A stretch of DNA of 26,528 bases from a virus (lineage: Duplodnaviria > Heunggongvirae > Uroviricota > Caudoviricetes), in the IMG/VR virus record IMGVR_UViG_2563366972_000005, positions 1 to 26,528 of that record, one strand, 5' to 3'. The translations under genes and the position numbers were made by a program. Each line of letters begins with the position of its first letter. Positions within the stretch are counted from its first letter, which is position 1. Positions 4,076 to 16,314 of the stretch are shown here, piece after piece. The notes under the pieces were generated by a model. The model did no database searches, was not told the origin of the DNA, and saw only the letters and a list, made by a program, of their open reading frames with translations.

Positions 4076-4356
4076 TGTTTATATCCTTTTAGCAGCAGGT
4101 CCAGACGAGCCAGCATTGAAGGAATGCATACTTCATTTAACAGGTCATGCTCGAGTTTTCTCTGCTTAATGGCGTCTTCAATAAATGTTTTGTCTCCAGT
4201 GATAACGCCAATTTCGAAACGAAGTTCAGACGTACTGGCATTGCATGATAACTTTTCCATTATCGCGTCCTCAACAATGAATTTTGTGATGCGGTGCCTG
4301 GTGCCTCCAGGTGACGTTAACCAGTTAACAATTAACGCCGGATACAGAGAACCCAC
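4072..4356 (-). CDS. Kil-like small protein (possible host cell-division inhibitor); likely true start is the ATG at 4260 (62 aa)
   Basis: Motif FEIGVITGDKTFIEDAI resembles the lambda Kil core as I remember it; internal ATG at 4260 is preceded by GAGGA with 7 nt spacing; the long ORF begins with GTG. Confidence 0.4.
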   Translation of the reverse strand: MGSLYPALIVNWLTSPGGTRHRITKFIVEDAIMEKLSCNASTSELRFEIGVITGDKTFIEDAIKQRKLEHDLLNEVCIPSMLARLDLLLKGYKQ

Positions 4357-4834
4357 CCATAAGAACCAATACGGAAGTCAACTGGCCTTTTTAACTGTTC
4401 CGCGTGCGCTGAGCCGCATTCACCGCATCACAAAATTCACTTTAAAAAGGGCGGGTATCACAAGGGAAAACAAAAAACGGATACCCGCCAAAAGGTAATC
4501 AACATGGGTTGTTGCAGCGGGGTTGTCACTTAAGCGTATGGTCAACCTGACAACCTGGTGTCCTCAACGGGGAAGGAATAACCCCGCCATACTTACCGCC
4601 GCGCCATTTCGCGGATTGCCACAACCGGAAGCGCACGGTCGACGAAAATTTAACGACAGGCTATCTATGAACCAGCTACCTCGCCGTGCGCTTTCGCGTT
4701 ATGGTCTGACTTTTCATGGAAATATCCTTTCAGTAAACTGTCAGTGCCGGATGCTCACCCGTGTCCGGCGCACGCACTCCACCTCACCCGTGGAGAACTC
4801 CTTAATTACCAACCTTAGCTTCGTTGGTTAGCTA

Positions 4835-5449: not shown

Positions 5450-5575
5450 GTTCTTACGCCTCGGGCTGGCTACTTAACCCCTGACCACTGCCTGGTAACT
5501 CGAAGTATTGCCCTGCATTCTGTGGGGTGGGGTGAGGGAATGAATGAAGTTTAGAAAAATGAACTTTTCAGGTCA

Positions 5576-5594
5576 ATGTTTTTTATCAAAACAT
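5576..5594. promoter_or_regulatory. oL-like operator: perfect inverted repeat ATGTTTT-N5-AAAACAT
   Basis: Palindrome read directly from sequence downstream of the repressor gene; same half-site (GTTTTGAT / ATGTTTT) recurs in the cI-cro intergenic region. Confidence 0.45.
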
Positions 5595-5659
5595 TTTAAG
5601 CAGGCAGCTGTTAAGCCATCACCACGATGGCATACAGTTAATCAAATAGATGAGGTTGG

Positions 5660-6298
5660 TTAAATATCTTGTTGAATTTTAAAGCATACGCCCAATATGC
5701 AAGATAGATCATCCAGCATAATTGAAGGGTAGCGAGGATTCGTGGGGACTAAAAGAATATCCGGCCCTTCTATCTCCAGTTTACGAATGACAGGTGTTGT
5801 GGTCCCTTTGGGTAAGGCAAGGACAATATTTCCTGGTTGTACGGTTCGATCGGGATCAACAAAAACTGTTGAACCATTTGGGATGGAAACTCCCCCACCA
5901 GATGTTGACATACTGTCACTCTCTAGAACAACTGCAAAGGTATTGGCCGGGATTTCTCCGACAAGCTGCACACAAGAGGTTATTGAGGAATTTTTCATAT
6001 AATCACTCCAGCTTGCTGCCTGCTGAAGTGATAGTAGCGGAACCGTTTTTATCGGCGGTAAAGATAGATCAAGCGAATCACCTGTATTTAACTCTCCTCC
6101 ATTAAGAAGCCAATTTTCGTTTACTTTCAATATCTTTGCCAGTGAACTTATGTAACGCGAGGACGGCGCTCCTCCACCGTTCATCCATTGACTTACGGAG
6201 CCTTTTGATGCGCCAGTGGCATTGACAAGGTCTTTGCCTTTCAGGTTTAGCGCATGCATACGTTGGGTTATGCGTTCAGATATTGTTTGCTTGCTCAT
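5660..6298 (-). CDS. CI-like repressor (N-terminal HTH plus C-terminal S24/LexA-like autopeptidase domain)
   Basis: 212 aa; N-terminal HTH-like segment (RMHALNLKGKDLVNATGASKGSVSQW) and C-terminal S24-like segment; divergently oriented from the cro-like gene. Confidence 0.88.
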   Translation of the reverse strand: MSKQTISERITQRMHALNLKGKDLVNATGASKGSVSQWMNGGGAPSSRYISSLAKILKVNENWLLNGGELNTGDSLDLSLPPIKTVPLLSLQQAASWSDYMKNSSITSCVQLVGEIPANTFAVVLESDSMSTSGGGVSIPNGSTVFVDPDRTVQPGNIVLALPKGTTTPVIRKLEIEGPDILLVPTNPRYPSIMLDDLSCILGVCFKIQQDI

Positions 6299-6361
6299 GT
6301 TTTGATTTTAAAACACAGATGGTTTTGTTTCTTGACTTTCTTTGGTTTTGATTATTAAACT
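6297..6361. promoter_or_regulatory. oR-like operator/promoter region with three GTTTTGAT-containing repeats between the repressor and cro-like genes
   Basis: Repeats ATGTTTTGATTTTAAAACAC (overlapping the repressor start codon), GGTTTTGTTTCTTGAC and GGTTTTGATTATTAAAC read from sequence; TTGACT -35-like element within. Confidence 0.5.
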
Positions 6362-6389
6362 TTTGGCGTTCAGTTTTATGGAGCGACTC

Positions 6390-6620
6390 ATGAAAAAATC
6401 AGAAGTATTAGGCTATTTTGGCGGAGTTGTTAAAACAGCCGCAGCTCTAGGAACGTCAAAAACCACAGTCAGCATGTGGGGGGAAGAGGTTCCGTGGAAA
6501 TGGGCGTTGCTAATTCAGGCAGTCACTGCTGGGGCGCTCAAATATGAGTTACACATACCGACGGTTGTCATTCCCGGTTCTGATCATAATCCGCCTTCTA
6601 ACCAAGGGGGGGATTCATGA
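6390..6620 (+). CDS. Cro/YdaS-like small HTH regulator
   Basis: 76 aa from ATG at 6390 (GGAG 5 nt upstream); HTH-like segment VVKTAAALGTSKTTVSMW; first gene rightward of the repressor; stop overlaps next start (ATGA). Confidence 0.72.
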   Translation: MKKSEVLGYFGGVVKTAAALGTSKTTVSMWGEEVPWKWALLIQAVTAGALKYELHIPTVVIPGSDHNPPSNQGGDS

Positions 6621-7042
6621 AAATCAAGCATGAACACATCCGCATGGCGATGAATGCCTGGGCGCGTCCTGATGGCGAAAAAGTTCCAGCAGCTGGAATA
6701 ACCCAGGCTTATTTTGAGTTGGGTATGACGTTTCCTGAACTGTATGACGACAGCCATCCGGAAGCCCTGGCTCGCAATACCCAGAAAATTTTCCGCTGGG
6801 TAGAGAAAGACACCCCTGATGCAGTTGAAAAAATTCAGGCGTTGTTACCAGCGATCGAAAAGGCAATGCCACCTTTGCTGGTGGCCAGAATGCGCAGCCA
6901 CAGTTCAGCTTATTTTCGGGACCTGGTGGAGACGCGGGAGCGATTGGTGAGAGACGCTGATGATTTTGTCGCAGTGGCAATCGCCGGCTTCAATCAGATG
7001 AACCGTGGTGGTCCGGCAGGAAATGCTGTGGCGGTACATTGA
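6617..7042 (+). CDS. YdaT-like protein (CII-like functional equivalent in Rac/CP-933P-type immunity regions)
   Basis: 141 aa starting MKIKHEHI, matching the YdaT N-terminus as I remember it; position directly after the cro/ydaS-like gene; strong AAGGGGGGG Shine-Dalgarno. Confidence 0.65.
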   Translation: MKIKHEHIRMAMNAWARPDGEKVPAAGITQAYFELGMTFPELYDDSHPEALARNTQKIFRWVEKDTPDAVEKIQALLPAIEKAMPPLLVARMRSHSSAYFRDLVETRERLVRDADDFVAVAIAGFNQMNRGGPAGNAVAVH

Positions 7043-7113
7043 CTGACAATATTCATACCGGATCGCTTCCGGAAACTCGTGAGTAAAAAGATTCGGTATC
7101 AGAAGAGGTGAGT

Positions 7114-8154
7114 ATGGCCAACGCCTGGCTCAGATTATGGCATGACATGCCAAATGACCCTAAGTGGCGAACAATTTCAAGGGTGTCAGGACAGCCGATT
7201 GCAACAGTGATGGCGGTGTATATCCACCTTCTGGTTAGCGCGTCACGAAATGTCACGACATGTCACGGCGTGTCACTACGGGGTCACATTGATGTCACGA
7301 CGGAAGATTTAGCAAGTGCGCTTGATGTGACGGAAGACGTAATTGATTCAATTTTGCAAGCAATGCAGGGGCGGGTGCTTGATGGAGATTTAATCACTGG
7401 ATGGGAAAAACGCCAGGTACTGAAAGAGGACAACGGTAACGTTTCTCAAACCGCGAAATCCCCGGCAGAGCGCAAGAGAGCGCAGCGTGAGAGGGAAAAA
7501 TTACGAAAACAGAATGAGGAATGTCACGACGAGTCACGCATATGTCACGACATGTCACGACGAGTCACGACAGATACAGATACAGATAAAGAATTAAACC
7601 CCACACATAGCGCGCGCGTGCGCGAGATCGCTCCGACCAGTGAGTCGAATGGCGCGCCGTTGCAGGCAGCGGAACCTGATTACCTGGAAGGTCTGAGCGA
7701 ACCCATCGGAAAATTTCCGATGACCGACGGCTGGAATCCGTCGCCCGATTTCCGACAACGGGCTGCACTGTGGGGAGTGGCTCTGCCGGAGCCGGAATTT
7801 ACACCTGCTGAACTTGCCGCCTTCCGGGACTACTGGGCAGCGGAGGGGAAAGTTTTCACGCAGGTTCAGTGGGAGCAGAAATTCGCCCGTCACGTAAATC
7901 ACGTCAGGGCGCAGGTTAAACCAGTCAGCAAGGGGGTGAGCCATGCAGCAACGCCAGGTGGCACCGCATCACGGGCAGTTCAGGAAATTCGGGCAGCACG
8001 TGAGCAGTGGGAACGTGAAAACGGATTTATCAGCGACGGAAACGGCGTGGAAGCTGTGGGAACTCATGGGGGAGGTTTATTCGAACCGCTGGACTCAGAA
8101 GAACGGGGCCGCACCTTCGAAGCTCTGGATTGCACAGATTGGCGCGATGACTGA
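7114..8154 (+). CDS. Replication initiation protein, O-like, with embedded iteron origin
   Basis: 347 aa from ATG 7114 (GAGG 5 nt upstream); two clusters of 10-bp-phased GTCACG iterons inside the coding sequence; immediately upstream of a lambda-P-like gene. Confidence 0.7.
   Translation: MANAWLRLWHDMPNDPKWRTISRVSGQPIATVMAVYIHLLVSASRNVTTCHGVSLRGHIDVTTEDLASALDVTEDVIDSILQAMQGRVLDGDLITGWEKRQVLKEDNGNVSQTAKSPAERKRAQREREKLRKQNEECHDESRICHDMSRRVTTDTDTDKELNPTHSARVREIAPTSESNGAPLQAAEPDYLEGLSEPIGKFPMTDGWNPSPDFRQRAALWGVALPEPEFTPAELAAFRDYWAAEGKVFTQVQWEQKFARHVNHVRAQVKPVSKGVSHAATPGGTASRAVQEIRAAREQWERENGFISDGNGVEAVGTHGGGLFEPLDSEERGRTFEALDCTDWRDD
7241..7300. repeat. Iteron cluster 1: six GTCAC(G) repeats at ~10-11 bp spacing inside the O-like gene
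   Basis: Direct repeats cGTCACGaaa tGTCACGaca tGTCACGgcg tGTCACtacg ggGTCACatt gatGTCACGa read from sequence. Confidence 0.7.
7521..7600. repeat. Iteron cluster 2 (five (T/A)GTCACGAC repeats) followed by a CAGATA x3 tandem and an AT-rich tract; putative origin of replication
   Basis: Repeats at 7523, 7533, 7544, 7554, 7564 with 10-11 bp phasing, then cagatacagatacagataaagaattaaacc; mirrors the lambda ori architecture (iterons plus AT-rich region inside O). Confidence 0.65.
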
Positions 8155-9518: not shown

Positions 9519-9830
9519 GTGATTTTCACCAGTCAACAAAATATCCGTAGCGCGATAACGGTCAAAAATCATGGCGCTGACACTTTTGTGCCGCTGGAGA
9601 TGACTGTACCTAAGTTCAGGGGAGAAGAACACGTCCGGTGGGATGGTCGGGCCAGATTTAAAGGGCAGGTCATGGCTCCAGCCTGTACGCTGGCAATGGA
9701 GGCTGCCTGGCGGGAAATTGATATGGGAACCACGCCACTCAGGGATTTACTGCCGGTCCAGAGAATAAATCCCTGTTACGGTTACACCACTGTGATCTTG
9801 CAAGTGCAGGAAAGTAGGTCTACACGGTAA
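9519..9830 (+). CDS. Hypothetical ORF, possibly a fragment of a decayed gene
   Basis: 103 aa ORF with no convincing RBS; protein-like sequence continues in other frames on both sides (9386-9550 and 9818-9996). Confidence 0.25.
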   Translation: MIFTSQQNIRSAITVKNHGADTFVPLEMTVPKFRGEEHVRWDGRARFKGQVMAPACTLAMEAAWREIDMGTTPLRDLLPVQRINPCYGYTTVILQVQESRSTR

Positions 9831-10248: not shown

Positions 10249-11007
10249 ATGAGGAACATAATGGCTGGTTTTTTAATATTCCTGTCTTCTGCTGCTTATG
10301 CTGATATCAATCTGTATGGTCCTGGTGGCCCGCATACAGCCTTGCTTGATGCAGCCAAACTTTACACCAAAAAAACAGGTATTATAGTGAACGTTCATTA
10401 CGGCCCACAGAACAAATGGAATGAAGATGCAAAAAAAAATGCAGATATCTTGTTTGGCGCATCAGAACAATCTGCTCTGGCTATCATTCGGGACCATAAA
10501 GACAGCTTCAGTGAAAAAGATATTCAGCCTCTTTATCTGCGAAAAAGTATTTTACTGGTAAAGAAAGGTAATCCTAAAAATATCCGGAGTATTGACGACC
10601 TGACCAGACCCGGGATTGGCATAATTGTTAATGATGGTGGTGGTACCAGTAATACATCAGGCACTGGCGTCTGGGAAGATATTGCCGGACGTAAAGGGAA
10701 TATAGAAACTGTCGCCGCAATCCGAAAAAATATTATTTTATATGCGCCCAATAGCGGAACTGCACGTAAGGCTCTTGAGAATCAGCCTGAAGCAGATGTC
10801 TGGATAACCTGGGCTGACTGGGCAGCCAGTAATCCAGGAATTGGTGATGTCGTGGAAATAGCGCCAGACTACGTGATATGGCGTGATATGAACATTACAG
10901 TACGTCAGGATGCAAATGATGAAACCCGTCGATTTGCAGAATGGCTACAAACCGATGAAGCGGCGCCTGCATTCAAAAAATATGGCTGGACCAGGAAAGG
11001 CACTTGA
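10249..11007 (+). CDS. Solitary periplasmic substrate-binding protein, ModA/WtpA-like (type 2 PBP fold), with signal peptide
   Basis: 252 aa; N-terminal signal peptide (MAGFLIFLSSAAYA); ModA-like landmarks (INLYGPGG...ALLDAAKLYTKKTGIIVNVHYG, ADILFGASEQ, C-terminal FKKYGWTRKG versus ModA FKRYGFT); AAAGGAG Shine-Dalgarno; AT-rich; no permease or ATPase partner nearby. Confidence 0.7.
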   Translation: MRNIMAGFLIFLSSAAYADINLYGPGGPHTALLDAAKLYTKKTGIIVNVHYGPQNKWNEDAKKNADILFGASEQSALAIIRDHKDSFSEKDIQPLYLRKSILLVKKGNPKNIRSIDDLTRPGIGIIVNDGGGTSNTSGTGVWEDIAGRKGNIETVAAIRKNIILYAPNSGTARKALENQPEADVWITWADWAASNPGIGDVVEIAPDYVIWRDMNITVRQDANDETRRFAEWLQTDEAAPAFKKYGWTRKGT

Positions 11008-11154: not shown

Positions 11155-11346
11155 GCGAAAACGGTTTGCTGTAACGGCAGAGTTAAGTAGAATTGCTGCG
11201 GGTGCTTGAGGCTATCTGCCTCGGGCATGAACACCAACGGCAGATAGATAAAAGCCCCACCCGACTATAAATCGAAGTGAGGCCCCTATATGCTCGTCAC
11301 ATATAGATTGCCTCTTACGGACCGAAAGGTCAAGGAGAAGCAGGCT

Positions 11347-11502
11347 ATGAAGCAGCAAAAGGCGATGTTAATCGCCCTGATCGTCATCTGTTTAACCGTC
11401 ATAGTGACGGCACTGGTAACGAGGAAAGACCTCTGCGAGGTACGAATCCGAACCGGCCAGACGGAGGTCGCTGTCTTCACAGCTTACGAACCTGAGGAGT
11501 AA
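11347..11502 (+). CDS. hok: Hok/Gef-family type I toxin (small membrane-depolarising peptide)
   Basis: 51 aa MKQQKAMLIALIVICLTVIVTALVTRKDLCEVRIRTGQTEVAVFTAYEPEE; close match to the Hok signature (...LTRKSLCEIR...REVAAFMAYE...); single TM helix; highly structured upstream leader. Confidence 0.85.
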   Translation: MKQQKAMLIALIVICLTVIVTALVTRKDLCEVRIRTGQTEVAVFTAYEPEE

Positions 11503-15285: not shown

Positions 15286-15361
15286 GGCCCTTTAGCTCAG
15301 TGGTGAGAGCGAGCGACTCATAATCGCCAGGTCGCTGGTTCAAATCCAGCAAGGGCCACCA
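15286..15361 (+). tRNA. tRNA-Ile2 (anticodon CAU, lysidine-type, reads AUA), ileX-like
   Basis: Cloverleaf folded by hand: acceptor GGCCCTT/AAGGGCC, anticodon loop CTCATAA, T-loop TTCAAAT, encoded CCA; near-identical to E. coli tRNA-Ile2. Confidence 0.88.
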
Positions 15362-15362
15362 A

Positions 15363-15439
15363 CCGCCACTAGCTCATCAGGAAAGAGCGTCAACCCTTTA
15401 AGTTGAGAGTGCGAGGTTCGAGTCCCCGGTGGCGGTCCA
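15363..15439 (+). tRNA. Noncanonical tRNA-like gene (anticodon loop CCTTTAA: UUU at 34-36 but C at position 33; A.C mismatch in T-stem)
   Basis: Acceptor CCGCCAC/GTGGCGG, U8, D-arm GCTC/GAGC, T-loop TTCGAGT, encoded CCA; anticodon stem TCAAC/GTTGA. Confidence 0.55.
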
Positions 15440-15441
15440 GT

Positions 15442-15517
<76 letters not shown>

Positions 15518-15520
15518 TAT

Positions 15521-15595
<75 letters not shown>

Positions 15596-16232: not shown

Positions 16233-16314
16233 CCGTCACTAACTCATCGGGTAAGAGTGCATAACGCGTATTGTTGTTTTGTGGTGCGGGGTTCGAGTCC
16301 CCGGTGACGGTCCA
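16233..16314 (+). tRNA. tRNA-like gene / probable pseudo-tRNA, paralogous to the gene at 15363, with expanded noncanonical anticodon region
   Basis: Intact acceptor (CCGTCAC/GTGACGG), D-arm (ACTC/GAGT), T-arm (CGGGG-TTCGAGT-CCCCG) and CCA, but 28 nt between D- and T-stems instead of 23; best anticodon stem ATAAC/GTTGT gives loop GCGTATT. Confidence 0.45.

Follow-up and report, generated by a model that had tools for sequence, protein, structure and literature searches.

Positions 6390-7042 of the window, by which the whole 26,528-nt stretch of viral DNA analysed here is meant, are taken up exactly by two co-oriented open reading frames, a cro-type gene and ydaT, the second of which is the 141-aa ORF with the N-terminus MKIKHEHI that the preliminary description had placed after a cro-like ORF. 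The cro-type gene starts with an ATG at 6390, with a GGAG 6 nt to its 5′ side, and opens with MKKSEVLGYFGG, and its TGA stop codon overlaps the ATG of ydaT in an ATGA arrangement. The ydaT gene is sited between the cro-type gene and the replication genes and is divergent from the repressor gene, and the presence of the replication genes directly downstream supports the order cI/cro/cII analog/O/P (Table 1). The three ORFs cI, cro and ydaT are all intact.

Table 1. Features of the immunity region and the adjoining replication genes in the window.
Feature	Position	Strand	Evidence
cI-type immunity repressor, 212 aa, HTH + S24	5660-6298	-	Pfam, PHROG, alignment
cI-cro intergenic control region	6299-6389		promoter scan, repeats, sequence reading
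cro-type gene, 76 aa, P22-Cro family	6390-6620	+	Pfam, P22 Cro structure 1RZS, PHROG
weak PRE-like promoter candidate in cro, TTAACA-18-AATACT	6404-6433	-	promoter scan, 9/12
candidate YdaT-box GGGATT-CATGAA-AATCAA, over cro stop and ydaT start	6610-6627		pattern, alignment
ydaT, 141 aa, CII-like lysogeny-establishment factor, CP-933P/3C4R subtype	6617-7042	+	Pfam, PDB, PHROG
replication initiator, 348 aa, DnaT-type domain	7108-8154	+	Pfam DnaT 66 bits; PHROG replication initiation protein
lambda-P-like helicase loader, 221 aa	7943-8608	+	Phage_lambda_P 61 bits; PHROG P-like helicase loader

The surroundings of the locus are those of a lambdoid prophage, with integrase (int) and exonuclease (exo) genes, a dicB-like region, hok/sok, DUF968, Q, a tRNA cluster and a lysis region, and with genes for a terminase of the gpA type, a portal of the lambda type and a protease-capsid fusion. 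A sok antitoxin RNA at 11200-11349 on the plus strand (Rfam RF01794, 104 bits) indicates a hok/sok type I toxin-antitoxin locus in the nin-like region. The tRNA cluster lies 3′ of Q (15286-15595 and 16233-16314, plus strand) and comprises a tRNA with a CAT anticodon, which is annotated as Ile in a related genome, together with Lys-TTT, Thr-TGT and Gly-TCC; an 82-nt tRNA-Val(AAC) also predicted by ARAGORN is without Rfam support at the gathering score. Among the early-right genes, a 252-aa periplasmic solute-binding protein is encoded at 10249-11007 on the plus strand (SBP_bac_11, 121 bits), apparently as a cargo ("moron") gene. Between the dicB-like gene and ydfC (4283-4437, minus strand), where related phages such as Tritos have an annotated DicF, no DicF match was found at E ≤ 1, and the sole match in this interval is the sRNA STnc100 at a sub-threshold 33.7 bits (gathering score 47).

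The repressor and the cI-cro control region

The 212-aa repressor contains Peptidase_S24 (50.5 bits) and HTH_3 (22 bits) domains according to Pfam and matches PHROG 4, "transcriptional repressor", with 140 bits over residues 2-211. Lambda CI aligns with it over residues 13-204, the 434 and P22 C2 repressors align through their N-terminal domains, and BLASTP detects no similarity to RacR, in agreement with the earlier proposal of a CI-like S24 repressor in place of RacR. The Ser-Lys dyad is intact, with Ser129 (ESDSMS) aligning with the serine of the lambda GNSM motif and Lys173 (IRKL) with lambda K192, and self-cleavage of the protein is plausible from the alignment. The lambda Ala111-Gly112 bond aligns with Ala94-Ala95 (QQA/ASW; codons 6015-6020, minus strand), and since Ala-Ala is found here instead of Ala-Gly, the SOS inducibility of the window repressor must be considered uncertain. 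The same grading applies to the unrelated S24 repressor of 606R7, which also has no Gly at the aligned cleavage site and in which a Thr aligns with the catalytic Ser; 606R7, like 640R1 and 813R8 below, is a prophage prediction from a clinical-isolate genome and not an induced particle.

In the intergenic region, the promoter scan identified a PR-like promoter, TTGACT-18-TAAACT, at 6332-6361 on the plus strand, and three 16-bp repeats of the GTTTTG type are located at 6299, 6322 and 6345 with a period of 23 bp. By their likeness to lambda and CP-933P, the repeats are candidates for OR3, OR2 and OR1, respectively. On the far side of the repressor gene, a PL-like promoter, TTGACC-17-TAAACT, is found on the minus strand at 5576-5548 and is adjoined by sequences related to the OR repeats (5548-5594). 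The two sets of repeats, at 6299-6361 and 5548-5594, are probably the OR and OL operators of the immunity type represented by the window. The ATG of cI is not preceded by a Shine-Dalgarno sequence, and a TAAAAT hexamer is located 6 nt to its 5′ side on the minus strand, which suggests a candidate PRM giving rise to a leaderless cI mRNA, for which lambda cI and paaR2 provide precedents (PMC8630535). Strain 165 has the same DNA as the window over the entire 212-aa HTH and S24 ORF, but in its RefSeq/PGAP annotation the repressor is reduced to its C-terminal 112 aa, a "LexA family protein" (locus L001, 9061-9399), likely because the start is leaderless and has no Shine-Dalgarno sequence. The truncated form, the S24 half of the repressor, is also what the PHROG 8558 profile represents.

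The Cro-type partner and the YdaT protein

The preliminary description had taken the gene pair for a YdaS/YdaT-type module, which is correct for YdaT and incorrect for YdaS. The 76-aa Cro is of the P22-Cro type and belongs to another family than YdaS. It scores 57.8 bits against PF14549 (P22_Cro; cut-off 30.2), matches the P22 Cro structure 1RZS at E = 2.3e-8 and falls into PHROG 409, "transcriptional regulator". Against the YdaS model PF15943 it reaches 15.1 bits at a cut-off of 30, the K-12 YdaS as a control giving 107.7 bits with the same model, and its identity to the K-12 YdaS is 24% across 58 aa. The DicC model NF007282 (NCBIfam) is likewise failed, with 31.5 bits at a cut-off of 130, so that the "DicC" label in record ON470612 is a loose one; the protein should carry neither the YdaS nor the DicC name.

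The 3′ end of cro contains a homopolymer of seven G residues (6603-6609) which doubles as the ribosome-binding site of ydaT. In record 640R1 the run is of six residues, resulting in an 80-aa Cro that reaches 17 nt into ydaT, and with the seven residues present in the window and in strain 165 a 76-aa Cro closes at the ATGA overlap, a version that PGAP tags as "frameshifted". The effect of the difference is confined to a few residues at the C-terminus of Cro, outside the HTH domain.

The identity of the 141-aa protein as YdaT, also put forward in the preliminary description, is confirmed by the Pfam family PF06254 (39.4 bits, cut-off 21) and by a match of 154.5 bits to PHROG 163, "CII-like transcriptional activator". 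Its sole matches in the PDB at E ≤ 1 are 3C4R, with approximately 95% identity over all 141 residues (E = 1.8e-88), and 8BT1, the YdaT of CP-933P, with approximately 84% identity likewise over all 141 residues (E = 1e-78). The alignment to the YdaT of the K-12 prophage Rac extends over the full length with 33% identity (BLASTP, E = 3e-16), which agrees with the 31% published for the CP-933P and Rac proteins (PMC8630535). Six aligned YdaT sequences, that of Rac among them, all have Arg60 and Trp61 in the recognition helix, and Arg60 (CP-933P numbering) has been described as the one residue of helix α-3 that is fully conserved (PMC9986795). From the high identity to 3C4R and 8BT1 we infer that the window protein likewise has a POU-like HTH domain and a long C-terminal helix and forms a tetramer. 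No Pfam family other than PF06254, and thus not the lambda CII sequence family, was matched by the protein at E ≤ 0.01. YdaT has been established as a functional equivalent of lambda CII in the literature (PMC8630535, PMC9986795, PMC11879457), as had been noted previously for this gene, and the window protein is a functional analog only, outside the CII sequence family.

With respect to the consensus of its subtype, the window YdaT departs at four positions, H17R, K27G, K30Q and E103D. The first three sit in the loop and helix α-2, which in the published model of the CP-933P protein are placed against the DNA backbone (PMC9986795), and hence belong to a region that contacts the backbone according to that model. 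They originate from a divergent 70-nt patch in ydaT (6666-6736), which accounts for 19 of the 36 nucleotides at which the window and record 640R1 differ and looks like a small within-gene recombinant patch. A co-variation of the R17/G27/Q30 allele with the GGGATT half-site of the operator described below was considered and rejected, as 640R1 combines the consensus protein with GGGATT.

The names in the databases point to a rather different function, as the Pfam family is called "YdaT_toxin" and the RefSeq label is "toxin YdaT family protein", which would make the two genes a type II toxin-antitoxin pair with a YdaS antitoxin and a YdaT toxin. Overexpression of the Rac YdaT indeed leads to filamentation and death (PMC11879457), however, the same study traces the toxicity to transcriptional effects such as the activation of rcsA and not to a toxin activity. 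The link to toxicity made in the preliminary description derives from the allele of Rac, with no more than 33% identity, and is not supported for the window, since the much closer CP-933P YdaT (84% identity) showed no toxic effect and the CP-933P pair was shown not to be a toxin-antitoxin module (PMC8630535). Furthermore, the gene upstream of ydaT is outside the YdaS family, the structure of YdaT is that of a DNA-binding POU-like HTH tetramer (PMC9986795), and ydaT occupies the position of cII. The "toxin" name itself goes back to a computational prediction from 2007 that has been both argued and tested against (PMC5917428, PMC8630535). By analogy with these systems a toxin-antitoxin function of the window pair appears highly improbable, and the database name is misleading for the YdaT subtype of the window.

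The predicted YdaT operator and the proposed switch

The YdaT of CP-933P has been footprinted on an inverted repeat, TTGATT-N6-AATCAA, designated operator OM, and the supplementary oligonucleotides of that study show OM lying precisely across the stop codon of ydaS and the start codon of ydaT (PMC9986795). In Rac, the sequence ATGATTCATGAAAATCAA, of the form ATGATT-N6-AATCAA, likewise covers the ydaT start codon and was given the name YdaT-box; the Rac and CP-933P proteins cross-bind each other's boxes (PMC11879457). In the window, the corresponding sequence GGGATTCATGAAAATCAA at 6610-6627 has 16 of its 18 bases in common with OM, with two mismatches, and its alignment to the published CP-933P operator oligonucleotides and to Rac places it at the homologous position over the ydaT start. 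The core GATTCATGAAAATCAA is the same in the window, CP-933P and Rac, and the 22-nt block GATTCATGAAAATCAAGCATGA is invariant across six aligned sequences. The count of the bare pattern at up to two mismatches is not above chance, with two boxes in the window against 1.8 expected, so that the case for the box rests on its positional homology with the footprinted sites. The segment 6610-6627 is accordingly a predicted YdaT operator and the positional homolog of OM and the Rac YdaT-box. A search for further boxes near int, Q or elsewhere in the window, which might correspond to lambda PI and PaQ, returned only 9519-9536, a chance-level match with two mismatches.

The left half-site of the box reads GGGATT in the window and TTGATT in CP-933P, and the G at its second position is a T in all other loci examined; in the window type, the run of seven G residues that constitutes the ydaT Shine-Dalgarno sequence reaches into the first two positions of this half-site. 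The right half-site AATCAA encodes codons 2-4 of ydaT (K-I-K), which explains why the N-terminus MKIKHEHI is common to proteins with only 33% overall identity.

Taken together, the segment 5660-7042 very probably controls the choice between lysis and lysogeny in a lambdoid prophage of E. coli and is organized as cI/cro/ydaT/replication genes with YdaT replacing lambda CII, a reading consistent with the gene identities, the gene order, the presence of the box and the conservation of the DNA-contact residues that are seen in the window. In the proposed mechanism, cro, ydaT and the replication genes would be transcribed from PR (6332-6361), and YdaT would be an early product of this transcript, its translation coupled to that of cro via the ATGA overlap. 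The protein would then tetramerize through its long C-terminal helix and bind the inverted repeat over its own start codon, and the box-bound YdaT would turn on an otherwise silent leftward promoter with transcription running back across cro and into cI, the additional repressor favoring lysogeny. The P22-Cro-type Cro and the S24-type CI would compete at the three operators between cI and cro. The tetramer, its binding to the box and the activated reverse promoter are modeled after the homologs from CP-933P (84% identity) and Rac (33%), of which the former is a tetramer (PMC9986795) and activates the promoter PRE933P (PMC8630535), and the latter activates a reverse promoter within ydaS 29-fold in a box-dependent manner, with increased racR expression (PMC11879457).

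The YdaT-dependent promoter is placed differently in the two studied systems, at the box in CP-933P (PMC8630535) and approximately 190 bp from it in Rac (PMC11879457). A minus-strand consensus scan for a leftward PRE-like promoter within cro of the window gave just the sequence at 6433-6404, which is at chance level with 9 of 12 consensus positions and an overall frequency of three matches against 2.1 expected. Its distance to the centre of the YdaT-box is approximately 188 bp, and by analogy with Rac it may be regarded as a weak candidate for the PRE-like promoter. At the box itself, the consensus scan found no leftward promoter in the window, CP-933P or Rac, and it also missed the experimentally supported Rac promoter PracR4, hence the scan is uninformative here. 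A search over ydaT for an OOP-like antisense RNA or any Rfam family yielded only a spurious eukaryotic lncRNA model (E = 0.11).

Frequency, module exchange and comparison with known systems

Among 5426 complete E. coli genomes, and at a coverage of at least 80% of the query, the whole cI-cro-ydaT block (window 5600-7100) occurs in 1035 genomes (approximately 19%), the cI-cro part alone in 1042 and the ydaT part alone in 2929, the last at up to seven places per genome. The first two counts imply that the cI-cro type of the window is practically always joined to this ydaT subtype, and the subtype itself is also joined to other cI-cro types in approximately two thirds of the genomes with this ydaT. 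The repressor and Cro genes found in front of ydaT comprise a 139-aa CI without an S24 domain and a 108-aa Cro in phage Tritos, a different 214-aa S24 repressor and a 75-aa Cro in 606R7, PaaR2-PaaA2-ParE2 with a 100-aa YdaS-like Cro in CP-933P, and RacR with YdaS in Rac. The term mosaic immunity region, used in the preliminary description, therefore applies in the generic lambdoid sense, however not as a peculiarity of the window, in which the three genes represent a fixed and common block.

The best whole-block matches are 99.3% identical, and the block is conserved at 98-100% in most of the approximately 1040 carrying genomes. The deposited prophage records with this block label its genes as cI, DicC and activator protein cII. 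The records 640R1, 813R8 and 606R7 are predictions only and thus no proof of a working module in a live phage. Both YdaT systems that have been studied, Rac and CP-933P, reside in cryptic prophages. The latter circumstance could be taken to mean that the module is an inactive relic without a role in the lysis/lysogeny decision, or that YdaT is mainly a host regulator, as in the relation of the Rac YdaT to rcsA, and the deviating left half-site of the box, the Ala-Ala at the aligned cI cleavage site and the "frameshifted" flag of cro would fit such a view. On the other hand, the intact ORFs of all three genes, the conservation of the block, the full set of replication, Q, lysis, terminase, portal and capsid genes in the window and the confinement of the G-run difference to the last Cro residues all speak against it, and we consider a relic or a predominantly host-directed regulator unlikely.

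The homology between modules of different type is concentrated at the cro/ydaT joint. The 22 nt around the ydaT start are 86-100% identical across 12 loci, with the exception of the locus of Klebsiella phage Kp4882 (68-82%), whereas the flanks (243 nt upstream and 385 nt downstream) drop to approximately 50%, the level of unrelated sequences, wherever the modules differ. Between the window and Rac the identity is 54% upstream, 91% in the box and 55% downstream; between the window and Tritos, which have related ydaT flanks, the values are 51%, 91% and 94%, and between Tritos and record 673R7, in which the upstream parts correspond, 98%, 100% and 56%. The phage matches that share just ydaT with the window start at 6612, and the crossovers of the cro/ydaT modules map to the 22-nt island (window 6606-6631; loci L002-L021). 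The contrast between flanks and box and the onset of the matches at 6612 thus place the box exactly at the joint of cro/ydaT reassortment, and the recognition of the YdaT-box as a conserved island at the module joint is the one modest addition made here to the published picture. The box could therefore serve as an operator and a recombination linker at once, and also provide a route of cross-talk between heteroimmune prophages. As the box is shared and the YdaT proteins cross-bind, YdaT could act on co-resident or incoming heteroimmune phages; the full proposal, in which the island is both the operator and the recombination joint of cI-cro and ydaT and YdaT cross-activates the repressor-establishment promoters of heteroimmune lambdoid phages, is put forward tentatively and appears to us somewhat doubtful.

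A retrieval with the MKIKHEH peptide pattern gave nine loci from species representatives, which is no census of the family, and the box was confirmed in Shigella, E. albertii and E. ruysiae. Two loci with E. coli-type ydaT, L007 and L014, come from short contigs binned into metagenome-assembled genomes of Collinsella sp. and Candidatus Nanosynbacter. The YdaT of L007 is 96% identical to the window protein, the box flank of L014 equals that of K-12 Rac, and both are almost certainly mis-binned contigs of Enterobacteriaceae prophages.

The arrangement as such is already known, as the function, structure and operator of YdaT have been published and the block is common in E. coli, and nothing in the window switch would surprise a specialist. 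The overall plan is that of lambda, with the same gene order, divergent PRM and PR promoters, three operators, which in the window are candidates, a repressor of the S24 autocleavage type and a CII-type activator gene between cro and the replication genes. A CIII analog was not identified in the window. Lambda CII binds the direct repeat TTGC-N6-TTGC, unlike YdaT, the site of which is an inverted repeat and the fold of which combines a POU-like HTH domain with a four-helix-bundle tetramer.

The closest characterised relative is the cryptic prophage CP-933P/Sp12 of E. coli O157:H7, in which ydaT likewise follows a cro-type gene with an ATGA overlap and a box over its start, and in which the recognition helix of YdaT is almost identical to that of the window protein, with Arg53 and Arg60 kept. 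PDB entry 3C4R is an uncharacterised prophage protein of the same subtype. CP-933P and the window differ in the Cro protein, which is a 100-aa YdaS-like protein in CP-933P and of the 76-aa P22-Cro type in the window, and in the repressor, as CP-933P has PaaR2 without an S24 domain, followed by the paaA2-parE2 toxin-antitoxin pair (PMC8630535), in place of the 212-aa S24-type CI. Rac of K-12 follows the same logic, in that a tetrameric HTH protein, with its box over the ydaT start, activates a reverse promoter toward the repressor gene (PMC11879457), and both the N-terminus MKIKHEHI and the 22-nt block at the box are common to Rac and the window. However, the window repressor has no relationship to RacR, YdaS, unlike the window Cro, is a genuine member of PF15943, ydaS and ydaT are 22 nt apart instead of overlapping, and toxicity and control of rcsA have been demonstrated for the Rac allele only. 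The window pairs YdaT with an S24-type, potentially SOS-cleavable repressor, whereas the repressors of Rac and CP-933P are without an S24 domain, and a prophage of the window type would thus be a more lambda-like model for the role of YdaT in lysogeny.
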